A DNA stretch of 24,000 bases from Candidatus Methylacidithermus pantelleriae (GCF_905250085.1 NZ_CAJNOB010000056.1:39035-63034); one strand, 5' to 3'; counted from the stretch's first letter, positions 421 to 23,493 are shown. Numbers and translations are program-made. Notes: generated by a model from the sequence alone, not told the origin.

Positions 421-463
421 TCAACCCTGACCGTGATTGTTTTTGACCGTTCGCCTTTTCGGA

Positions 464-1759
464 ATGGAAACTAACCCCTTGAGCGATATCGATTCCCGGG
501 AGCGCTTAGCCGAAGCAGGGGTTTTTGTCCTTCGGCAATTGCACAAGGCTCGTTCCTTCTTTCAACGAGACTGGAGGGCAAGTCCTTCTCTCTTCCCGTT
601 ATCTTTGGAAGAAGTCCGGTTTTTGGAAAAACTTGGCCGATATCTCTACCGCTTCACCCGTGCCTGCGATCTGCTGTACCACTGGAGCCTTCGCGGGAAA
701 GCTCCGGCATGGGTTAGCGAGCTATTGGATCGCGGTAAACCTCCGGAGCTCATCGAGCTTGGCCGGGATCCCCGACTGCGAGGTGAGCTTCCCTTGGTCA
801 TCCGGCCGGATCTTGTGTTGACCCCCGATGGATTTGCGCTTTGCGAACTGGATAGCGTCCCAGGCGGGATTGGACTGACTGCGTGGCTTCAGGAAGTGTA
901 TGCGGGGTTGGGAGAGCAACCCATTGGGGGAGCCAAAGGGATTCGGGAAGCATTTGATGCGATTTTTCCTACTGGCGAGGTGGTGATCGCAGAGGAGGCC
1001 CGGGGCTATTGGCCAGAGTTTGAGTATTTGGTGGGAGCTAGCCGGGTTGTTCCCGCCGAGGGCTATCGGTGTGGAAACGATCCCATCTACCGGTTCTTCG
1101 AGTGTTTCGACTGGATGAATCTTTCTTCCCTTCGCCAAACCTACCGTCCTGGATCCCCCTGGATGACTCCCCCGTTGAAGGCGTATTTAGAGGAAAAGAT
1201 GTGGCTTGCGCTTTTCTGGATGCGACCCCTGCGTTCCTTTTGGCTTCGAGAGCTTAGTGAAAAAGGGTTTCGGTTCCTTCAATCGGTGATTCCTTACTCC
1301 TGGGTAGTGGATCCCACCCCGCTCCCTCCTCACGCGGTGATCCCCGAGCTAGGCATTCAGGACTGGAGGGAACTGGGGAGGTTCAGCCAGAAGGAACGCG
1401 AAGTTGTGCTCAAGATTTCCGGCTTTTCCCCACTAGCTTGGGGTGCGCGGGGCGTTTTTGTCGGGTCTGATCTTCCCCAGATCGAGTGGGCAAAGAAAGT
1501 CGAGGAGGCCATCCAGAGCTTTGCCACGCATCCCTTTATCCTGCAGCGGTTTGTCAAGGGTCGGGTGGTTCGCCACTACTGGATTCGAGAGGATGGAGTG
1601 GTCCTTCCGATGGAGGGACGAGCCCGGGTCAGTCCCTTTTATTTTATTATCGGGGAAGAGGTGCGATTGGCGGGGGTCCTTGTAACTGTCTGCCCGCTGG
1701 ATAAAAAGCTCCTCCACGGGATGCGAGACGCGCTTTTGGTCCCGGCAAAACAGGCATAA
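464..1759 (+). CDS. ATP-grasp-fold protein of unknown function, resembling circularly permuted ATP-grasp / glutathionylspermidine-synthase-like families
   Basis: Long ORF (track 437-1759, which starts at a TTG); the first ATG is at 464. Motifs seen: RPDLVLTPDGFALCELDSVPGGIG (resembles the R.D...LE.N..P.G motif), VLKISGFSPLAWGARGVFVG and FILQRFV. The family assignment is from memory, not from a search. Neither start has a clear SD. Confidence 0.6.
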   Translation: METNPLSDIDSRERLAEAGVFVLRQLHKARSFFQRDWRASPSLFPLSLEEVRFLEKLGRYLYRFTRACDLLYHWSLRGKAPAWVSELLDRGKPPELIELGRDPRLRGELPLVIRPDLVLTPDGFALCELDSVPGGIGLTAWLQEVYAGLGEQPIGGAKGIREAFDAIFPTGEVVIAEEARGYWPEFEYLVGASRVVPAEGYRCGNDPIYRFFECFDWMNLSSLRQTYRPGSPWMTPPLKAYLEEKMWLALFWMRPLRSFWLRELSEKGFRFLQSVIPYSWVVDPTPLPPHAVIPELGIQDWRELGRFSQKEREVVLKISGFSPLAWGARGVFVGSDLPQIEWAKKVEEAIQSFATHPFILQRFVKGRVVRHYWIREDGVVLPMEGRARVSPFYFIIGEEVRLAGVLVTVCPLDKKLLHGMRDALLVPAKQA

Positions 1760-2023
1760 CTCTTTTCGTGACAAGGGAGTAACCCGTAGAACTTGTCGCA
1801 AGACGGGAATAAGCTGGCGTTTTGGGGAGGGACCGAGGGAATGTAAAACTCCGGGCGAGAAGCAGGTCCACGAAAAAAGGACGCAGCCATAAAATCTCCC
1901 TAAAAGGTTCTTTTTGTTCCCTCGAGCCTTCCGGCGATGCGGCCCGGCTTCTTTGCAGGATGCCAGAGGGTTTTTTCTTCCGGCGCTGGGATTTGCCAAA
2001 GCGATTGCGCTCCAAAAAACGAT

Positions 2024-2064
2024 CCTAAGCTCTCCCAAATCCTCTCGTGAATGGAGAGCTTAGG
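2024..2064. repeat. Perfect 12-bp inverted repeat (CCTAAGCTCTCC, 17 nt, GGAGAGCTTAGG) about 150 nt upstream of sucC
   Basis: Arms at 2024-2035 and 2053-2064 are exact reverse complements, read directly from the sequence. The function (operator, RNA hairpin, or terminator of the upstream gene) is unknown. Confidence 0.5.
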
Positions 2065-2212
2065 CCATCAAGCGCTTGGTAGCCCAAGAGGATGGATGGT
2101 AAAGGGAAAAAAAAGAGGCTTCGGCGGGTCTCCTGTCCGAGCCCTCTTGAAAAAAGGGGATTCATGGGCGACCCTCTTTCGGTTATCGGTGATTGAGGAG
2201 GGGTTAGTCACG

Positions 2213-3394
2213 GTGCTTCTTAACGAGTGGGAAGGAAGAAGATTACTCGAGGCGGCAGGGATTTCTCTTCCGAGGGCAGCGATCGCGACTTCTGCCGAGG
2301 AAGCCGAAGAAATCGCTCTCCGGTTAGGAATTGACCGGCTGGTGATCAAGCCTGTCATTCGAGCTGGAGGAAGAGGAGTTGGAAGATGGATAGGGCAAGA
2401 GGAGGAAAGAGGAGGAATTGCCTTTGCTCACAACCCGAGAGAGGTCCGAAGCGTGGCCGAAAAAATGCTGGGTCGGAGGCTTGCCACTCCCCAAACACCC
2501 CCTGAGGGGGAACTAGTACGGCAAGTCCTCCTTGTGGAGAAGCTCGATCTGCAACGAGAGGTGTATTTTGCCGTGCTTGTAGACGGCCGAAAAGGGGCGC
2601 CCCTTATTGTGGCGAGTCCTCAGGGAGGAAGCTATGTGGAGGAGCAAAAGCAAAAGCGTTGGATCGAGTGGGTGCATCCGGAGCGAGGGTGGAAAGCCTT
2701 TTCCGCTCGCAGGGTTGCCAAGTATTTGGGGTGGGACGGGGAGAATCTCCCGGTTGCTACCGAGTTTCTGCTACGCCTCTACGAGACGTTTTGTAGGTAT
2801 GACTGCCTTCTTTTGGAAATGAATCCCCTCGGGGCCAACGCAGGGAAGGGGGAGCCGGTCATCGTCGACTGCCGGCTTTTCATTGATGATAATGCGTGGG
2901 AGGACCATCCCGAGTTGCGAAGATTGGCACAGGAGGAAGAGGAGGTCCTGGGCCCGTGGAAATGCTTGGAGCTAGGTCTAAGCTACGTGCGGTTGGGCGG
3001 GAACATCGGTTGTCTTGTCAACGGCGCAGGTTTGGCGATGGCAACCATCGATTTAATCCAGCGATGGGGAGGGAAACCGGCCAATTTTTGTGATGTCGGC
3101 GGAGGAGCTGATTTGGAACGCGTCAAAACGGGCCTGCGGCTTCTCTCTCGACAACCTGAGGTTTCGGTCATTTTAGTCAATATCTTTGGGGGTATTCTTC
3201 ATTGTGATCTTCTCGCACAAGCCCTGGTGGAAGTCGTCGAGGAATCTCCCCTAACTGTTCCCGTGATCGTCCGTTTGGAGGGGACCCGGGCAAGAGAAGC
3301 TTGGGAGGTTCTTCAAAAGTTTTCCGAGCTTTTTGAAGTAGCGGGGGATTTCGAGCAAGCCGTGCGAAAGGCCGTGACGCGGGCAAGGCGCTAG
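2213..3394 (+). CDS. sucC: Succinate--CoA ligase (ADP-forming) beta subunit
   Basis: C-terminal motifs GNIGCLVNGAGLAMATIDLI, GGKPANFCDVGGGA, VNIFGGILHCD and VIVRLEG closely match E. coli SucC. The GTG at 2213 gives (V)LLNEWEGRRLL, which aligns with MNLHEYQAKQLF, and GAGGAGG lies at 2194-2200. The track ORF starts at 2051 with a non-homologous 54-aa extension. Confidence 0.9.
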   Translation: MLLNEWEGRRLLEAAGISLPRAAIATSAEEAEEIALRLGIDRLVIKPVIRAGGRGVGRWIGQEEERGGIAFAHNPREVRSVAEKMLGRRLATPQTPPEGELVRQVLLVEKLDLQREVYFAVLVDGRKGAPLIVASPQGGSYVEEQKQKRWIEWVHPERGWKAFSARRVAKYLGWDGENLPVATEFLLRLYETFCRYDCLLLEMNPLGANAGKGEPVIVDCRLFIDDNAWEDHPELRRLAQEEEEVLGPWKCLELGLSYVRLGGNIGCLVNGAGLAMATIDLIQRWGGKPANFCDVGGGADLERVKTGLRLLSRQPEVSVILVNIFGGILHCDLLAQALVEVVEESPLTVPVIVRLEGTRAREAWEVLQKFSELFEVAGDFEQAVRKAVTRARR

Positions 3395-3434
3395 GAGAGG
3401 GCGGGAGAAGCCTGGGGAGGGGGCTTTCTCGGCA

Positions 3435-4313
3435 ATGGCGATCTTAGTAAATGCAGAAACAAGGGTTGTGGTCCAGGGGATTACGGGCCGAGCAGGGTCG
3501 TTCCATACGCGCGCATGCTTGGAATATGGGACCAAGATCGTGGCTGGCGTAACTCCGGGGAAAGGAGGCAGGAGGTTTGATGGGAAGATCCCTATTTTCG
3601 ATACGGTGGAGGAAGCAAAGGAAAGTACCGGATGCAATGCAAGTCTCATCTTTGTCCCTGCTCAAGCGGCTCCTGATGCCATTTTGGAAGCGGGAGCAGC
3701 TGGTTTGGATCTGGTGGTTTGTATTACAGAAGGAATTCGCGTGCATGACATGATGCGGGTGAGGTGGCAGTTGCAGCAAAGCCACACGCTTCTCTTAGGT
3801 CCCAATACCCCGGGGATTATTTCGCCTGGGCAATGCAAAATCGGGATTATGCCGGGCTATATCCACCGGCCCGGGCCGGTGGGAGTAGTCTCTCGAAGCG
3901 GCACCCTTACCTATGAGGCGGTGTGGCAGGCAACGCTGGAAGGACTGGGGCAGTCTACGTGCTTGGGTGTGGGTGGGGACCCGATCCATGGAATGAGTTT
4001 GGGAGAAGCTTTGTTCAAATTTATGGAAGACCCTCAAACGGAGGCCATTCTTCTTTTAGGGGAAATTGGAGGAGGGCAAGAGGAAGAGGTGGCTAAGCTT
4101 CTCTCTGAAGGGAGAATAACCAAACCTGTGGCAGCTTTTATCGCAGGGAGTGCGGCTCCCAGCGGCCGCCGGATGGGACATGCTGGAGCCATTGTTTTTG
4201 GCGAATCCGAGCGGGCCCGGACCAAAATGGAACGGCTCGAGGCTGCCGGCGCGTGGGTAATCGAAGATCCCTCGAAAATCGGGAAGACCCTTCGCAGACT
4301 CCTGCGAGGCTGA
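3435..4313 (+). CDS. sucD: Succinate--CoA ligase alpha subunit
   Basis: Motifs MAILVNAETRVVVQGITGRAGSFHT, VAGVTPGKGG, SRSGTLTYEAV, GVGGDP and the phosphohistidine loop MGHAGAIV. A G-rich SD lies upstream. It starts 40 nt after sucC. Confidence 0.95.
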   Translation: MAILVNAETRVVVQGITGRAGSFHTRACLEYGTKIVAGVTPGKGGRRFDGKIPIFDTVEEAKESTGCNASLIFVPAQAAPDAILEAGAAGLDLVVCITEGIRVHDMMRVRWQLQQSHTLLLGPNTPGIISPGQCKIGIMPGYIHRPGPVGVVSRSGTLTYEAVWQATLEGLGQSTCLGVGGDPIHGMSLGEALFKFMEDPQTEAILLLGEIGGGQEEEVAKLLSEGRITKPVAAFIAGSAAPSGRRMGHAGAIVFGESERARTKMERLEAAGAWVIEDPSKIGKTLRRLLRG

Positions 4314-4949
4314 CAGTGGCAAGAAGGTTTCGGTCTACGGTGTTACGGGAAGACGCAAAGCCGATGCGCGCTCAATTGAGGGAGAAAGAAGCCGGCCAAC
4401 GTTGTGTCATTGTCGATGTAGCCGGAAATTGTGGATGAACTTCCCAGCCGCAGTGTCCCAAAGCGGGACCGTTCGGGGCAGATTGGAGCTGGGCACTTGG
4501 GTGGGCGCGTTCCGCCAGGATCTCGGTCTATTCCCTTGTGATCTCCAGCAGGCCGGTCTCATTACCTGGCTGGAAAAAAACATTGCCTGCTTGGCCATCG
4601 AAAAAGCGTAGTCCTAGCTCGCTCAAGGTAACGCTCTTCCGTAGATCCTGTGCCGTTTTCCGAATCCGCCCGGCGTCCTGAAAGAGCTTCTTTCTGCACG
4701 AATCGCTTGTCCCTGCTTCTCCTCTCCTCGGTCACGAAAACCGCAGCCCTGATAGAGAGTTCGTCCACGGCGTTCTCGCCCTTCGGCCGATGCTCGAGCG
4801 AGATCGGCTGGATCGGAGCGATGAGTCTCAAACTATGCGCGAGGCAAGCCTTGGTTGCACTTCGGTCGCACATGTTCCAGCCTAGTCTTGGATCGTTGGG
4901 AACTGACCGGCTCACGCGGGAAAAGAATAGTGAGTGAATGAGCAGGCAT

Positions 4950-6850
4950 CCACCTCGGGGAAAAAATCCTGGCCGAAGCGCTACTTCTTTTGCCATAACG
5001 GCGGTTCCAGCGTCCTGATGGGACTCGCCCAGCGGTTAGTGTGGGCCGCGAAAAGGGTGAATCGTCCCGTGGGGAGGAAGGTATTTCCACCCGGCAACGA
5101 TTGGTCCAGGCGGAAACACCTGGAGGAGCTATCCGAGGTAACACGGGAGCTCGAAGGGCTCTCTCGAAAAGGCCTGGAAAGCGGGCGAATCGGCAAGCAG
5201 GCCCTACCGCAAGGGGGACGCTCTAACCAAACCTTGGAAACCGCGGGATAACGGCGCTGGGGCCTTCTCGCACAAAAAGCGAAAGCCGAAGTCTCTCTGG
5301 GAAGGACGAGCAAATACCGAGAACTAGGCAAGAGCATGCGTGCCAAGGAGGGTGCACGAGGAAAAAACGGGGGCCCATCCGGCCAATCGTTCGAGAGAAT
5401 GCCGAACGGGCTAGCCACTGCCCCGTGAGAAAAGAAAGTGGGACCAGATCGGAGTCGGATGGGTCCACGGTACTGTGGGACTCGGAGAAAGGCCCTAGGG
5501 ATGGGAAGGGGCAGGAGCAGGAGACTTCCAGAGGGAAACGTCGGAAGAATCGAGGCGACCGAGATGGGACGAATGGCTCCACGAGAATCTCCCAACAGTG
5601 TTCGGAAGTTCCCCATCGCGTTGCAGGCGAAAAGGAAGGCAAATTTCACCTATGGGCCGGGGCGATATGGCGGGTGTGCATCCCCAAAACCTGGCGGGAA
5701 CCGGAGGCGGCAAGGGAGACGCACCCTACGAGATGGGATGGTCCAGATGGCGACGGTTCTGGTACCTTCGCCCGATCTTTGAGGTGCATTCCCTATGCGC
5801 CTTGGATGAAGAGCCTAGCTTCGCCAGATACCTGTGGAGCCAGGCTTGCGCTTTTGAAAAGCCTGGCTGGAAATGTCCGTCGCGGTAGAGGACCGGCAGG
5901 GAAGGAAGCGGCGGGCGATTCAGGCCAAGGACGACCGGAGGCATGGGACACCGCAAGGAGCTCCCGTCTCTTGCTCTTTTGGCCAACCTCTCTATCTAAG
6001 CGGTTTATTCTGGCGTGGCAAAGAGAAGGGTGGATGGCCAAGTGGGCCGCCCACGTTGTACCGTAGGCCCTCGACGATGTGAGCCTTTGCCGGGGCTTCA
6101 TGCCGAGGAAGCCGCCAACCAAAATAAAGACCATCATGGAGCGAATCGGGCTTACTCTAAAGGGAGGAAACGACCCGGGTAGGCGCCCGAGTACCAGAGG
6201 AAAGCTTTTGAGTTTGTCGGTTACGCCTTGGGTCTTTGTTACAAGCCCACTACGGGTCAAAGCTAGCCGGGAAGAAAACCCTCAAAGCAACGGGTCAAGC
6301 GGCTATTGCAGAGTGTGAGCCAATGGCTCCGGGGGCTTTGCGGGGATAGGCAAACTCCTTCTGTCTTGGATGGTTTGAGCGCAAGCCTACCGGGCAGTGG
6401 ATCGTCACGTCGGGTACCGGCTCCGCTAGTGGCTCGGGCCTCAAGCCAGAAAGTCCAAGGGCAAGGAACGACTGAGTTTCCGGACGGTAATCCAGCGAGA
6501 AAAGGGTCCGAAGGCCCGAATGCGGGAAATCCACGCGTTCCGGTGCATGGAGCGGGCCCGCAAACGGTCGAGAGTGAGGGTAGGAGAGGCACTGCCACAC
6601 CGAAAGGGGGTAGCCCCAATATGCATTTCCTCGATCGCACCAGAGGATTCCTCAAGTCTAGGTAGAATTGCTGGAGCGCCCCAGCCACGAGCCGGCTCGG
6701 CGGGGTAGAGCTCGCTAGCTGCATAGGGGGGGCGCCACTGGCGGGGTAAGTTCAGCTTGCCGTCACCTACGCGGGGAGGCGGCTGGAAGGAAAAGGGCAA
6801 GTTCCGTGAGGCCTCCCTCATGCCTATTGCCCTTTTCCGGCTGGTGAAGC
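4950..6850 (+). ncRNA. Candidate large purine-rich non-coding transcript of unknown class; boundaries approximate
   Basis: My own base counts: 5461-5520 is G28 A14 C11 T7, and 5881-5940 is G28 A15 C14 T3. All three plus frames stay open at once over long stretches, which fits T depletion rather than coding. There are many short local hairpins, for example a 10-bp stem at 5838-5847/5859-5868. No Rfam family was recognised by eye. Confidence 0.3.
6789..6838. repeat. Hairpin with a perfect 12-bp stem (GGAAAAGGGCAA / TTGCCCTTTTCC) and a nested 5-bp TGAGG/CCTCA stem, located at the strand-composition switch
   Basis: Arms at 6789-6800 and 6827-6838 are exact reverse complements. The 26-nt loop contains TGAGG-CCTC-CCTCA. 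There is no U-tract on either side, so this is not a canonical intrinsic terminator. Confidence 0.5.
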
Positions 6851-7552
6851 GTGGCCAGAGCCGTGCACGGGAATCGATTCGTAGGAGGATGGAACTCAGC
6901 CCTGCTAAACAGTGCCAAGCGTCCGTGAGACTTCGCCTGGGTCAGTAGCCCATAAGTATATTCCCGGCTTGTGGTGCGTGGATATACCGCCGTGCCCTTC
7001 CGATCCCTTTGCTGCCATCAGGTGCTTTCCAAGGGAGAGTCTGCGTAATGTTTGCCGGTATCCTTGGCTGGGTCGGTGTGGAATATGGTCTTGCGCTTCC
7101 TTCGCTCCCCACTCCGATTCCATAGCTCTGCCAGCCTTGGGCTGGCTTATATTGATCTCACACCGTTCCGGAGCGGGACCGTTATCGATTTCACCTCATT
7201 TGGTGGGGGGTTGCCGGCTGGGTTCCTGCTTCTCGGGCAGGCTGTGTACCGCACGCCTTGCGCCTTTGTGCCGCAGAGCCCTTCTGCACAGCCGTCACCT
7301 GCCGAGGGGGCCTTCGGCTCGGGTGGCTCTTAGGACGACCAGCCCATCCGGCCGCTAGTTGAGTGACGTTACGGCCAATCGTTGGCAAAAAACCCGGATC
7401 GGTCCTGCAAAAACCAAGGCGTGTGAGAATGAGTTGCTATGGGCCGATCATTGAGAGCTTTGGTATTTTGTCGGGAAAGGAGGATGAAAAAGAGCATGGG
7501 AGAGGGCCTTCTTTCGTGTAACTCGCACGCTTCGCTAGGCAAGATTCGAGGA

Positions 7553-9589
7553 TTACTGAAGGTTCATCCCTTTGCGCTTGAGGTGACGCAAGATAGTTTC
7601 GACGAGCTCGTTTACTGTGGTCCGGGTCGTATCTAGGATAACGGCATCGTGAGCAGGTTTCAGCGGTGCAAGTTTGCGCTCCCGGTCCTTCTGGTCACGT
7701 TCTAAAAGCAGATCCGTTTCACCCTGTTGTCGGCGTCGTTCTTGACGAACCAAAGGATCTGCGTCGAGGAAGAATTTGTAGGGCGTTTTCGGAAAAACCA
7801 CCGTTCCAATGTCTCGCCCTTCCATGACCAAGGGGGCCTGGCGCGCAAGTTTTCGCTGGAGAGGCAAAAGGTACCGTCGAACGGCGGGGATGCTGGCTAC
7901 CAAAGATACGTTGGCATTGACTTCAGGATCGCGCAGGTAGGGCGAAGGGTCTTCGTCTCCTACGCGAATCTTAAGCTGGTGATTTTCAATCCAGCAATCC
8001 ATGGGGATTTTTCCAACGGCTCGCGCCACACGAAAACGATTGCTTATATCCACACCCATTTGGAGCAGTTTCCATGTCATGGCTCGGTAGAGAACCCCCG
8101 TACTGCAGTAGGCGAAATCAAGTCTCCGTGCTAGCTCTTGGGCGACTGTCGTTTTTCCCGATGCTGCTGTGCCGTCAATCGCCACTACGGGAAAACGCGC
8201 CTCAGCCGGGTCTTCTAGCGATTCTTTGGCCCATCGTGCCCACCGGTGACCGATTTGCCGAAAGGCTCGTTCTCCCCATCCAGGGATCTCCGATTGGGTC
8301 AAGCTCTCGAAGTCTTTCTCAAAGCCGGGATAGGAAGTAGCGATGCAGGCGGTATCCTCGATCACACTGACCCCATCGGCAGCCAGTGCCAAAATAGCAA
8401 AAGCCATTGCGATTCGATGGTCCCCGAAGCTCTGAACCGAGGCAGCGCGTAACGGATGACCTCCTTCGATAATAAGCCCGTCAGGGAGCTCCTCCACAGG
8501 CACCCCAAAGGCGCGCAGGTTATAGGCGAGGGCAGCCAAACGGTCGGACTCCTTGACGCGAAGCTCCGAAGCGTCGCGAATAATGGTTTCCCCTTGAGCC
8601 AGCGCACCGGCTACCGCTAGAATCGGCAGTTCATCGATCACCTGAGCAATCTCTTCGCCTCGGATCCGCGTTCCCCGGAGACGTTCTCCTCGGATTTCAA
8701 GGGTACCGTAGGGCTCGGTCTCACAGCTTTCAATCGTCTCTTTGACGGTGGCTCCCATGCGTAAAAGGATTTTCAGGAGACCCGTGCGAGAAGGATTCAG
8801 TCCCACCCCTTGCACAAAAAGCTCGCTTCCCGGGAAAGCTGCGGCCGCCACAATCCAGAAGGCGGCAGAGGAAAAATCCCCCGGGATAAAAAGGTCGTGG
8901 CCATGCAAGCGTACGCCTCCGTGAACTACAAGCTGACCATTGTCGAAAATGGGCCACAGGCCGAAATGACGAAGCAACCGCTCGGTGTGGTCTCGCGTGG
9001 GAATGGGCTCCTGGAGCCGGGTGACTCCGGAAGCAAAAAGCCCTGCCAGGAGAAGGCACGATTTGACCTGAGCGCTTGGCAGGGGTAACCGGTAATCAAT
9101 TCCATGAAGCTGAGATCCGTGAATCTCAAGCGGAGGAAGTTCTCCCGGTCCTTTGGCGTCGATCCGAGCCCCCATCTGGCGCAGCGGGACCAAAATTCGC
9201 GCCATGGGTCGCCGGGACAGGGAGGCGTCTCCGATAAGACAGGAAGAAAAAGGCTGGCCTGCAAGGATTCCGGCTATCAGCCGCATGAGCGTTCCGGAAT
9301 TTCCACAATCGATGGGCTCGGCAGGAGCCAGGAGTTTGCGATCTCGACCTTTGACCCGGACGGTCGTTGCATTAAGAAACTCGATTTCAGCACCCAGTGC
9401 CTGACAGGCGCGGATGGTTGCCAGGCAATCTTCCCCAGTTAAAACTCCGGAGAGGCGGCTTTCCCCTTCTGCGAGAGTCGCCAGAAGAAGAGCCCGGTGG
9501 GTGATACTTTTGTCTCCTGGGACGGTGACCGTGCCGCGGATTCGCCGGCTAGGAAAAATGCGGAGAGAACGGGAAGAGGTGTCTGGCAC
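7553..9589 (-). CDS. aroA: Bifunctional 3-phosphoshikimate 1-carboxyvinyltransferase (EPSP synthase) / cytidylate kinase fusion
   Basis: The N-terminal ~435 aa carry AroA motifs (VPGDKSITHRALLLATLAEG, DCGNSGTLMRL, RVKESDRL, DHRIAMAF). The last 213 aa (nt 7556-8194) are Cmk (FPVVAIDGTAASGKTTVAQELA, MEGRDIGTVVFP). It is one uninterrupted frame with a GTG start at 9589, and GGAGG lies 8 nt upstream. Confidence 0.9.
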   Translation of the reverse strand: MPDTSSRSLRIFPSRRIRGTVTVPGDKSITHRALLLATLAEGESRLSGVLTGEDCLATIRACQALGAEIEFLNATTVRVKGRDRKLLAPAEPIDCGNSGTLMRLIAGILAGQPFSSCLIGDASLSRRPMARILVPLRQMGARIDAKGPGELPPLEIHGSQLHGIDYRLPLPSAQVKSCLLLAGLFASGVTRLQEPIPTRDHTERLLRHFGLWPIFDNGQLVVHGGVRLHGHDLFIPGDFSSAAFWIVAAAAFPGSELFVQGVGLNPSRTGLLKILLRMGATVKETIESCETEPYGTLEIRGERLRGTRIRGEEIAQVIDELPILAVAGALAQGETIIRDASELRVKESDRLAALAYNLRAFGVPVEELPDGLIIEGGHPLRAASVQSFGDHRIAMAFAILALAADGVSVIEDTACIATSYPGFEKDFESLTQSEIPGWGERAFRQIGHRWARWAKESLEDPAEARFPVVAIDGTAASGKTTVAQELARRLDFAYCSTGVLYRAMTWKLLQMGVDISNRFRVARAVGKIPMDCWIENHQLKIRVGDEDPSPYLRDPEVNANVSLVASIPAVRRYLLPLQRKLARQAPLVMEGRDIGTVVFPKTPYKFFLDADPLVRQERRRQQGETDLLLERDQKDRERKLAPLKPAHDAVILDTTRTTVNELVETILRHLKRKGMNLQ

Positions 9590-10003
9590 TGGGTGATCCT
9601 CCTTTGCCTAATGGATAGATCTTAATCTCAAAGGAAGGAGTGAAGCAATGAGAGGCACAAAAAAACGGTTGTTGAGCAAGGGTGAATCCCAAAGTTCTGG
9701 GGGGCTGCTGATAGGGCGTCTGCCATTTGGACACGCTTCCGTTTGCGCCCTTCGAAGGGCAGGACAAAAGCTTTAAAGGTAAAAAAAAAGACCTTTCGCT
9801 TTCCATTTCTACCCCAAAAATCTTGCCCCACCGGTTTGCCCATTGCTCAGAGAGAAAGAAAGAGCCAAGACGTTTTTGCCGGTAAACCCAAGGGCAAGGT
9901 GGAGAGGATAGAGAGAATCGTGGAAGTTGTGCCGCCTACCGGAGAAAGGAACGTTTCCATCCCGTGTGCGATTTTGCCGCGAGGAGAGGTTCTGTCTGGG
10001 AAG

Positions 10004-10621
10004 ATGCGTCCCTTCTATGCCCTTACCTGGATCGTGACTCGCCGGATTTTGGAGGTCTTTTTTGATTTCTCTTCCCCTGGGATGGAAAAAGTGCCCCTGG
10101 AAGGGGGGCTCCTTGTTGTGGCCAATCACGCAAGTTATCTGGATCCCCCGATCGTAGGAGCGGCCCTCCCACGTGAGCTCTACTATCTGGCGCGGCGCAC
10201 ACTCTTTCGCCATCCCCTTTTTGCGCGCTTGATTCGAGCCTACCATGCGATTCCCGTGGAATTGGAACGACCCGATCCGGTAGGTTTGCGGGCGGTTCTG
10301 CGAGCCTTACGAAAAGGCAGGGCCGTCCTTCTTTTCCCGGAAGGAACTCGTACACCGGACGGACGTATGGGGGAAGCCCGGATGGGGGCGGGGTTTGTGG
10401 CGTGCCACGCGGGGGTCCCGATTCTCCCGGTGCGGATTTTTGGGACGTATGAAGTTCTCCCTCGGCACCGCAAATGGCCGAGGTTTTTTCCGATCCGCGT
10501 GGTGATTGGCTCACCGTTTCACATTCCCCAGGTCGAGGAAGAACCTCGTTCAAGAAAGCGCAAAGAGGTGTACCAGGAAGCGGCTTGGGAAATGAAGCGG
10601 AGAATCTTGGAGTTGGCCTAG
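10004..10621 (+). CDS. plsC: 1-acyl-sn-glycerol-3-phosphate acyltransferase
   Basis: Contains the H(X)4D motif NHASYLD and FPEGTRT. The ATG at 10004 follows GAGGAGAGG (9981-9989). The track ORF starts at a TTG at 9743 with an 87-aa basic extension that I consider non-coding. Confidence 0.85.
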   Translation: MRPFYALTWIVTRRILEVFFDFSSPGMEKVPLEGGLLVVANHASYLDPPIVGAALPRELYYLARRTLFRHPLFARLIRAYHAIPVELERPDPVGLRAVLRALRKGRAVLLFPEGTRTPDGRMGEARMGAGFVACHAGVPILPVRIFGTYEVLPRHRKWPRFFPIRVVIGSPFHIPQVEEEPRSRKRKEVYQEAAWEMKRRILELA

Positions 10622-22594: not shown

Positions 22595-22810
22595 CTACGA
22601 GGGAGCTCCTTTCCTTTTTCTTAGAATGGGCAAGCCCGTGCGATCACTTTCCGCCACTTCGTAGCCATCGGGCAAAGAGTCAAGCACGCCTTCTCCTACT
22701 TTGGTTGAGAAGTAATAGAGCCGCACTTTGAGCCCGTTCCGCAAAACTTGATCTCGTCCGTGGAGATAGTACGTCTTGCCGCTCTTTTTGCTGACAACAC
22801 TAAAGGCCAT
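22595..22810 (-). CDS. Small conserved-looking hypothetical protein (71 aa)
   Basis: The internal ATG at 22810 is preceded by GAGGAG. The sequence is MAFSVVSKKSGKTYYLHGRDQVLRNGLKVRLYYFSTKVGEGVLDSLPDGYEVAESDRTGLPILRKRK. The upstream part of the track ORF overlaps the rpmB 3' end and looks non-coding. Confidence 0.55.
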   Translation of the reverse strand: MAFSVVSKKSGKTYYLHGRDQVLRNGLKVRLYYFSTKVGEGVLDSLPDGYEVAESDRTGLPILRKRKGAPS

Positions 22811-22919
22811 GTTTTTTTTCTCCTCTCTATCGTTGGTTTCTACCGCAACACCCCGCTCCCTTCCACGCCCCTCTCGGTCGGCCGGGAGCGAGTTTCCCTG
22901 GGAAGGGCAGGTGGGCTCG

Positions 22920-23186
22920 TCACCGCAGTACACCTGCTTCCCGAAGCACCTGGTAGGGACCGTTTTTCATCATGGTCTTAAGTGCACGAGCCGTCACTCG
23001 AACGGTTACGGCTCGACCAAGTTCCGGAACGAAAATCCGCTTTCGCCGGAGATTGGGGAAGAAAAACCTCGGGTTCCTCTTGGTAACATGAATCCCGATT
23101 CCCCCTTTCTTTTTAGCCTTTCCCCGGCGACTAACGCTCCGGCCCCAAGCTCTGGTGGCACCCGTAATACAGCATCGACCTGCCAT
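22920..23186 (-). CDS. rpmB: 50S ribosomal protein L28
   Basis: MAGRCCITGA...FFFPNLRRKRIFVPELGRAVTVRVTARALKTM matches the L28 pattern (C.vTGK...RRF.PNLq..r.wv......v.lrvs.kalr). Confidence 0.9.
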   Translation of the reverse strand: MAGRCCITGATRAWGRSVSRRGKAKKKGGIGIHVTKRNPRFFFPNLRRKRIFVPELGRAVTVRVTARALKTMMKNGPYQVLREAGVLR

Positions 23187-23238
23187 ACCGCCCTTTCCTT
23201 TTTTTTCTTATTAGCTCCGAACACGGAGCTTTCCAGTT

Positions 23239-23493
23239 CTATTTCATCAAAAGCACGTTTCGGGCTCGCTTGATTTCGCGAGCCAACTTCCGGTGAAGCT
23301 TGGCGGGTAGACCGGTCACCCGTCTCGGAAGAATTCGGCCGCTTTCGGTCGTGAACTTTTTCAAAAATTCCACGTTTTGAAAGGAGATGGCTTCCGGGTC
23401 AATGTCCACCCGTTTTCGAGCACCTTTTGCCGGCATCCGGGCACGGCGAAGTGCTTTCTTTCTTCCTTTTTTTGTTTTCGTTTTTCTCCCCAT
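23239..23493 (-). CDS. rpsR: 30S ribosomal protein S18
   Basis: FQNVEFLKKFTTESGRILPRRVTGLPAKLHRKLAREIKRARNVLLM is the S18 signature. The ATG at 23493 is preceded by GAGAGGG. The track start at 23517 is a TTG. Confidence 0.85.
   Translation of the reverse strand: MGRKTKTKKGRKKALRRARMPAKGARKRVDIDPEAISFQNVEFLKKFTTESGRILPRRVTGLPAKLHRKLAREIKRARNVLLMK

Follow-up and report, generated by a model that had tools for sequence, protein, structure and literature searches.

A probable inactivated group II intron in the 3.2 kb gap between sucD and aroA-cmk of Candidatus Methylacidithermus pantelleriae

Candidatus Methylacidithermus pantelleriae is a thermoacidophilic verrucomicrobial methanotroph of volcanic soil. 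The stretch of its DNA analysed here, referred to as the window, is 24,000 nucleotides long and carries pmoCAB at 11.5-14.6 kb. The genes around the part of concern are:

2051-3394, plus strand: sucC
3435-4313, plus strand: sucD, the left boundary gene of the gap (ORF and Pfam domains)
7553-9589, minus strand: aroA-cmk fusion gene, the right boundary, convergent with sucD

The product of the fusion gene is 100% identical to a Ca. M. pantelleriae protein at NCBI. Between the convergent housekeeping genes sucD and aroA-cmk lies a gap of 3.2 kb (4314-7552) with no credible ORF, in otherwise compact surroundings, and its sequence is identical across all assemblies of the locus that were compared (five Logan assemblies). 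The public annotation of the locus offers hypothetical proteins only; the ORFs of the gap are singletons in a collection of 15 billion proteins, a few of which carry the label of hypothetical protein in the annotation of this organism. The GC content of the gap was considered as a sign of selection and rejected, as 0.58 against 0.64 at four-fold sites is unremarkable.

An earlier note had drawn attention to a block at 4950-6850, described as extremely G-rich and T-depleted on the plus strand. Its base content is G33.6 A23.7 C25.8 T16.9, and it is the most T-poor 1.9 kb stretch in the 24-kb window. The counts given for two single lines are exact (G28 A14 C11 T7 at 5461-5520, G28 A15 C14 T3 at 5881-5940), but the values of about 70% purine and 5-12% T apply to these hand-picked, extreme lines and not to the block, which has 57.3% purine and 16.9% T. 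A purine content of 70% or more within 60 nt is also reached in sucC and elsewhere. The neighbouring genes, which had been called more balanced, differ from the block in T (21-28% in every gene versus 16.9%) but not in purine, since the sense strands of sucC and sucD have 56.2-56.4%. The distinctive trait of the block is T depletion, i.e. C in place of T. Nor are the limits those originally drawn: the anomaly spans 5041-6660 (G33.5 A24.7 C25.3 T16.5, purine 58.2%), while the flanks at 4314-5040 and 6661-7552 are balanced, with 49.8% purine and about 23% T.

Low T leaves few stop codons on both strands and hence gives long spurious ORFs. Those of 222, 213 and 155 aa are present as reported, and no frame is favoured: there are 19-32 stops per frame over the six frames, the period-3 signal is 0.25-1.6 as opposed to 2-4 in genes, and the codon usage is at background (log-odds of -0.17 to +0.12 bits/codon in all six frames of the block versus +0.18 to +0.34 in genes). 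A recent pseudogene or a hidden gene was rejected, as the block shows neither a period-3 nor a codon-usage signal.

A long purine-rich RNA, either structured or protein-sponging, had been proposed for the block, partly on the ground of its many short hairpins. The number of stems of at least 6 bp is 4, as compared to 5.7 +/- 2.9 in dinucleotide shuffles, and hairpins are as frequent as in such shuffles whether the minimum stem is set to 6, 7 or 8 bp. Hairpins with GNRA loops, which had seemed frequent, are not enriched either (2-3 observed, 2-5 expected). The hairpin singled out at 5838-5868 is real, with a perfect 10-bp stem, and it is the only one in the block that stands out from shuffles. 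Folding of 150-nt pieces of the plus strand gave a mean z of -0.25 versus -0.19 in sucCD; the two 950-nt halves gave z = -1.21 and -1.32 versus -0.17 for a sucC control, which is a weak signal. No G-quadruplex motifs are found in the block, and no promoter-like site was found for it. A tRNA/tmRNA scan gave nothing. When the whole window was searched against Rfam, no family reached its gathering score, and relaxing the threshold to E<=10 brought up only eukaryotic lncRNA models, none of them meaningful.

Sponge RNAs of the CsrB/RsmZ type are rich in GGA motifs, most of which sit in the loops of hairpins. The block shows no enrichment of GGA (33.7 per kb, versus 30.9 in the sense strands of genes and 41.5 in sucCD). 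As the hairpins are at chance level as well and no Rfam match was found, a CsrB/RsmZ-type sponge was discarded as a candidate. In more general terms, the likeness of the block to OLE, GOLLD, ROOL, HEARO and CsrB/RsmZ is that of a long, ORF-free stretch with a strand-biased composition. Unlike these RNAs, the block has no Rfam match, no excess structure and no GGA repeat pattern, and it is clearly homologous to a retroelement.

The homology became apparent at the protein level. The lead query was the longest stop-free plus frame (5227-6063, 279 aa), and a HMMER search of 1.84 billion representative proteins gave a single match, P0248 (88 aa, E 4.6e-6, 49% identity), corresponding to 5785-6012 of the window. 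The N-terminal part of P0248 (residues 2-37) matches ltrA, which encodes the RT/maturase of group II introns, in 776 plasmid records, most closely that of Planctomyces sp. SH-PL62 at 61% identity. The remainder of P0248 is out of the reverse transcriptase (RT) frame and still matches the window, which means that the similarity is at the DNA level.

Intact LtrA proteins from Planctomyces (441 aa), Bradyrhizobium and Paraburkholderia were then compared with the whole 24-kb window by tblastn. The only significant matches lie at about 5700-6495 on the plus strand, with E 1.8e-12 for the Planctomyces protein and E 9e-7 and 8e-13, respectively, for the Bradyrhizobium and Paraburkholderia proteins. 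Residues 198-310 of the Planctomyces LtrA align to 5858-6208 and residues 308-417 to 6201-6485 (linked E 1.8e-12), and the overall match extends from residue 165 to 422 (5746-6495). An HMM built from the three LtrA sequences detects the stop-free segments of the block at E 8.5e-9. In the reverse direction, plus frames of 5400-6520 match 34 plasmid records, and every annotated one among the matches listed is ltrA. The putative pseudogene and its recognisable motifs are as follows:

5576-6499, plus strand: RT/maturase (LtrA-like) pseudogene (tblastn, HMM, reverse search)
5945-5959, plus strand: GTPQG, RT motif 4
6064-6078, plus strand: TAG stop, then ALDD (ALDDVSLCRG; YADD motif)
6188-6240, plus strand: RVPEESF/EFVGY
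6379-6435, plus strand: maturase X domain, AYRAVDRH..RLR*WL; AYRAVDRHVGYRLR*WL

The chain of ungapped HSPs crosses all three plus frames, changing frame at least 8 times and running into several in-frame stops. RT residues of about 27-96 and 130-174 have been lost in two internal deletions. A weak match of RT residues 53-76 at 5514-5585 does not fit the order of the DNA alignment and was discounted as a chance similarity. The frameshifts explain why no frame is favoured: they spread the RT remnant over all three plus frames. The view that a protein was unlikely for this reason does not hold, since more than half of the block reads as the remnant of an RT/maturase gene, and protein homology, which the earlier note had named as evidence against the RNA reading, is present in the form of the LtrA matches. 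Pfam and NCBIfam searches of the six-frame translations gave nothing significant; they missed the RT relic too, so negative results with these profiles are insensitive here. A PDB sequence search with the hand-stitched RT relic also gave nothing.

Group II introns are self-splicing, mobile retroelements with their own reverse-transcriptase gene. The intron-encoded protein, with RT motifs and a maturase X domain, is located in domain IV, and the hallmarks of the RNA are 5' GUGYG, 3' AY and a domain V with the triad AGC (or CGC) and a two-nucleotide bulge. As reference we used the closest of the intact introns examined, that of plasmid pPL62-3 of Planctomyces sp. SH-PL62 (NZ_CP011276.1), whose ltrA product is WP_068423085.1; it occupies positions 1982-3997 (2016 nt) of our sequence L093. 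Further intact introns were taken from plasmids of Bradyrhizobium sp. Ash2021 and Paraburkholderia terrae. Six collinear, same-strand blastn HSPs link the block to the reference intron, with E values of 9e-9 to 0.18, five of them <=7e-5:

5041-5213 to L093:1982-2152, 63% identity, E 6.6e-5, starting exactly at the intron GTGCG
5600-5639 to L093:2539-2578, the weakest, E 0.18
5671-5784 to L093:2791-2902
5864-6247 to L093:3112-3482
6329-6446 to L093:3615-3727
6506-6608 to L093:3847-3946, domain V, 70% identity, E 2.4e-8

The pieces that can be aligned share only 58-70% of their nucleotides with the intact intron. The 80-nt flanks resemble the exons of the intact intron no better than shuffles do (P = 0.17 and 0.99). 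As the similarity halts at both intron borders, the relic is delimited to 5041-6660, and its predicted parts, apart from the pseudogene listed above, are:

5041-6660, plus strand: entire group II intron relic, 1620 nt versus 2016 nt in the intact copy (collinear blastn HSPs)
5041-5213, plus strand: intron 5' end and proximal ribozyme region (blastn, global alignment)
5214-5575, plus strand: remaining 5' ribozyme part before the ORF, domains I-IV (placed by the flanking HSPs and the ORF start)
6512-6546, plus strand: domain V relic (blastn to L093 domain V)
6547-6660, plus strand: domain VI and 3' end relic (global alignment; last base uncertain by 1-2 nt)

At its 5' end the relic has GTGGG (at 5041) aligned to GTGCG of the reference, i.e. 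one mismatch to the GUGYG consensus. The reference stretch facing 5041-5213 is itself recognised by the Rfam model group-II-D1D4-4 (RF02003; positions 2010-2151, 91 bits). No similarity to the intact intron was detected in the approximately 360 nt of 5214-5575; the 5' ribozyme part as a whole is 535 nt long versus 533 nt in the intact copy, and the ORF is about 400 nt shorter. In domain V the catalytic triad AGC has become GGC (6513-6515), several stem pairs are broken, and the minimum free energy fold is without the canonical two-nucleotide bulge. The corresponding part of the reference (L093:3851-3997) matches RF00029, the domain V-VI model, with 46.5 bits. The relic ends in ...CCTCAAGTCTA, which aligns to the 3' end ...CCTCGACTCTAC of the intact intron; in the global alignment ...GTCTA near 6660 faces ...CTCTAC of L093. 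None of the Rfam group II models (RF00029, D1D4-1 to -7) matches in the window at E<=10, even when stretches of 750-1200 nt are searched. As no covariance model matches, the ribozyme parts are identified by pairwise DNA comparison with a single intact intron.

It is instructive to compare the general features of the relic with those of the intact reference intron. Both have the same order of parts (a 5' GUGYG-like end, a ribozyme part of about 535 nt, the RT/maturase ORF, domain V and a 3' tail), and in both domain V comes about 12 nt after the ORF. The strand logic, the G-rich and T-poor composition and a site outside housekeeping genes are also shared. The relic differs from the intact intron in being some 400 nt shorter; its reading frame shifts at least 8 times, with several stops and two internal deletions, and its domain V has a mutated triad and is recognised by no covariance model. 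The compositional anomaly fits this comparison. Intact introns from Bradyrhizobium and Paraburkholderia (L094 and L095) have G33-34 A23 C27 T17 and 56% purine between flanks with 49-50% purine, and the intact Planctomyces copy has 14% T. Since intact members of the same family are equally G-rich and T-poor, the anomaly of the block can be read as a family trait carried in by the relic. Several of the gene calls made here are probably spurious ORFs on or antisense to the intron relic, among them WP_174582421.1 (6441-6821, minus strand) and those at 4981-5649 (minus strand).

The intron covers only half of the 3.2 kb gap. The flanks amount to about 1.6 kb and contain these features:

4314-5040, no strand assigned: left flank of the insertion
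4435-4611, plus strand: 58-aa annotated ORF, WP_174582420.1, in the left flank
4562-4996, minus strand: 144-aa ORF, CAF0703624.1, in the left flank
6661-7552, no strand assigned: right flank of the insertion
6789-6838, no strand assigned: long imperfect hairpin of about 19 bp (fold z = -2.28)
7130-7146, plus strand: terminator-like hairpin (terminator scan)

The 58-aa ORF is the only one that comes near gene-like codon usage (0.155 bits/codon). No Pfam, NCBIfam or Rfam match was found in the left flank, and six-frame tblastn of it against plasmids gave nothing, while the same method picks up the RT relic as a positive control. The right flank had no protein, RNA or plasmid match. Searches with the gap by blastn against plasmids and phages, by nhmmer against 1.4 Mb of other loci, and by self-comparison were all negative. 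Genes found next to aroA-cmk in other Methylacidiphilaceae (hisC, tyrA, plsC, rpsA and others) were considered as a further source of the gap and rejected, as no relic of them is in it. The flanks may be remains of the intron's target DNA, or of DNA that came in together with the intron.

A close relative offers an empty site. The contig (L091; JGI 3300054968, Ga0556627_004668) was retrieved via SucD, and L092 is an independent Logan assembly. The SucD of L091 is 73% identical to that of the window, the C-terminal 416 aa of the window AroA-Cmk are 80% identical to their counterpart, and the upstream synteny (clpX-clpP-tig-...-sucC-sucD) is the same. L091 is a much closer relative than those that a scan of genome contigs with SucD yielded, all of <=62% identity. 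In both L091 and L092 sucD and aroA-cmk converge with 19 nt between them, so that the junction is an empty site for the whole 3.2 kb and not for the intron alone. With the two genes only 19 nt apart in the relative, the comparison of the loci indicates that the 3.2 kb is either lineage-specific extra DNA in M. pantelleriae or DNA of which the relative has deleted its copy.

Taken at the level of sequence comparison, the stretch 5041-6660 on the plus strand is best read as a bacterial group II intron that has become inactive, a reading to which we assign a probability of about 0.9. The triad GGC, the broken pairs and the absence of a match to Rfam group II models mark it as a relic and not a working intron. 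The copy would have arrived by retrohoming or retrotransposition, or within a larger piece of foreign DNA; its activity would then have been lost, and the sequence would have decayed neutrally since. Its G-rich, A-rich and T-poor composition would be inherited from the intron. The proposal of a structured or sponging RNA is thus partly right with respect to origin, since the plus strand appears to descend from a large structured RNA, a group II ribozyme. It does not describe the present state, in which none of the Rfam group II models fits, domain V carries a mutated triad, folding is near chance and GGA is unenriched.

A functional long non-coding RNA, structured or protein-sponging and either independent of the intron or exapted from it, would draw on the purine-loaded plus strand, the z values of the 950-nt halves (-1.2 and -1.3, versus -0.17 in the coding control), the one perfect 10-bp hairpin and the preserved length of the 5' ribozyme part. 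The other signs speak against it: neither hairpins nor GNRA loops nor local z-scores depart from chance, GGA is unenriched, G-quadruplex motifs and a promoter-like site are lacking, intron ancestry fully accounts for the composition, and the element is absent in a close relative. We regard such an RNA as very unlikely, and give just as little chance to an intron that still splices in spite of a degenerate ORF, with a second genomic copy providing the maturase in trans. ORF-less introns with remnants of the intron-encoded protein are known (PMC4424553), the 5' ribozyme part has its full length (535 versus 533 nt), and domain V and the 3' end can still be recognised. Against splicing stand the triad, which is GGC and not AGC or CGC, the broken pairs and non-canonical fold of domain V, the 5' motif GUGGG in place of GUGYG, and the lack of any covariance model match where the intact intron scores 91 and 46 bits. 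Besides, in a non-coding location there is nothing that would select for splicing.

Could the relic belong to some other RT element, such as a retron, a DGR, an Abi/UG or a group II-like RT? RT motifs 4 and 5 are common to many prokaryotic RT families, and Pfam makes no family call. However, a maturase X-domain motif is present, all annotated best matches among those listed are ltrA, and DNA homology is also seen outside the ORF, at the intron 5' end and in domain V, in the right order and spacing; of all the possibilities weighed here we find this one the hardest to credit. We also consider it improbable, if a shade less so than a functional RNA, that the decayed intron or the 1.6 kb of flanks has been co-opted (as a 3' extension of sucCD, or as an insulator/terminator), or that the flanks are an undescribed element into which the intron homed. 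Were co-option true, the sucCD transcript would carry a long, structured extension at its 3' end, or an insulator/terminator would separate sucCD from the convergent aroA-cmk transcription unit in this thermophile.

The inactivated intron copy that we favour has many counterparts, as truncation or inactivation has befallen the majority of group II intron copies in bacteria, which are located away from housekeeping genes (Zimmerly and Semper 2015, PMC4424553). The relic would be in the same state as the copies described there, i.e. decayed, in intergenic or mobile DNA and without effect on a host gene, and we see no difference of principle. The value of the result lies mainly in curation and method, with a false lead for a giant non-coding RNA removed. 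G-rich, T-poor, ORF-free blocks of 1.5-2.5 kb could be used as a compositional signature of group II introns, and a relic that escapes Pfam, NCBIfam and Rfam alike can be found easily by comparing it pairwise to intact copies. We found no published mention of group II introns in Methylacidiphilaceae, and the relic would place one on record in this family. Judged by its sequence, it appears to be an unannotated, inactivated example of a well-known element, ordinary genomic debris rather than a new regulatory RNA.

P0248, an 88-aa protein, follows the reading frame of the intron-encoded reverse transcriptase in residues 2-37 and is out of that frame in its later residues. Its residues 13-87 match the plus frame of the window, despite leaving the reverse transcriptase frame. 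The DNA encoding P0248 appears to be frameshifted near the position where the decayed group II intron of the window (5041-6660, plus strand) is frameshifted too, which would point to a related intron copy elsewhere that was already broken. As for search reliability, a 3257-aa concatenated, six-frame style query (stops replaced by X) gave zero matches in the protein collection, although the collection holds identical window ORFs; negatives from such queries are therefore not trustworthy.

The DNA on either side of the intron relic (4314-5040 and 6661-7552, about 1.6 kb) is ORF-free and of balanced composition. No match to these flanks was found in the searches made, and the close relative lacks both the intron and the flanks, which may be decayed DNA that once carried the intron or served as its target. 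Three hypothetical proteins are annotated in the gap between sucD and aroA-cmk.

Hypothetical proteins annotated in the gap (public record)
4435-4611, plus strand, hypothetical protein WP_174582420.1
4562-4996, minus strand, hypothetical protein CAF0703624.1
6441-6821, minus strand, hypothetical protein WP_174582421.1

Among the three, near-gene-like codon usage (0.155 bits/codon) is found only in the 58-aa ORF at 4435-4611. The ORF of WP_174582421.1 is probably spurious, because it overlaps the intron domain V region in antisense and its codon usage is at background. About 130 nt downstream of the intron 3' end there is an imperfect long hairpin (6789-6838) with an outer stem of 12 bp, GGAAAAGGGCAA/TTGCCCTTTTCC, and an inner stem of 7 bp; its fold z on the plus strand is -2.28, and no U-tract follows it.

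Elsewhere in the window, the 440-aa ORF at 437-1759 (plus strand) resembles genes in codon usage (0.25 bits/codon) and lacks Pfam domains. Its counterpart in L091, a contig of the close relative, is 441 aa long and lies upstream of sucC, i.e. position and size are conserved. The 165-aa ORF at 22776-23273 (plus strand) has codon usage at background (-0.07 bits/codon), the skew around it suggests minus strand genes, and it is probably not a gene.

In other Methylacidiphilaceae (L083-L086 compared with window 7553-10621) the order hisC-tyrA-aroAcmk-plsC-x-rpsA is kept on one strand, whereas in the window aroA-cmk is inverted with respect to plsC and adjoins sucCD and pmoCAB. The convergence of sucD and aroA-cmk is common to the window and L091, thus the rearrangement is older than the insertion. 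L091 (JGI 3300054968, Ga0556627_004668) and L092 (Logan SRR35626472) represent an uncultured organism that is far nearer to Ca. Methylacidithermus pantelleriae than every named genome, with 73% identity in SucD, 80% in the AroA-Cmk C-terminus and the same local synteny. This organism could be the second member of an otherwise single-species lineage.
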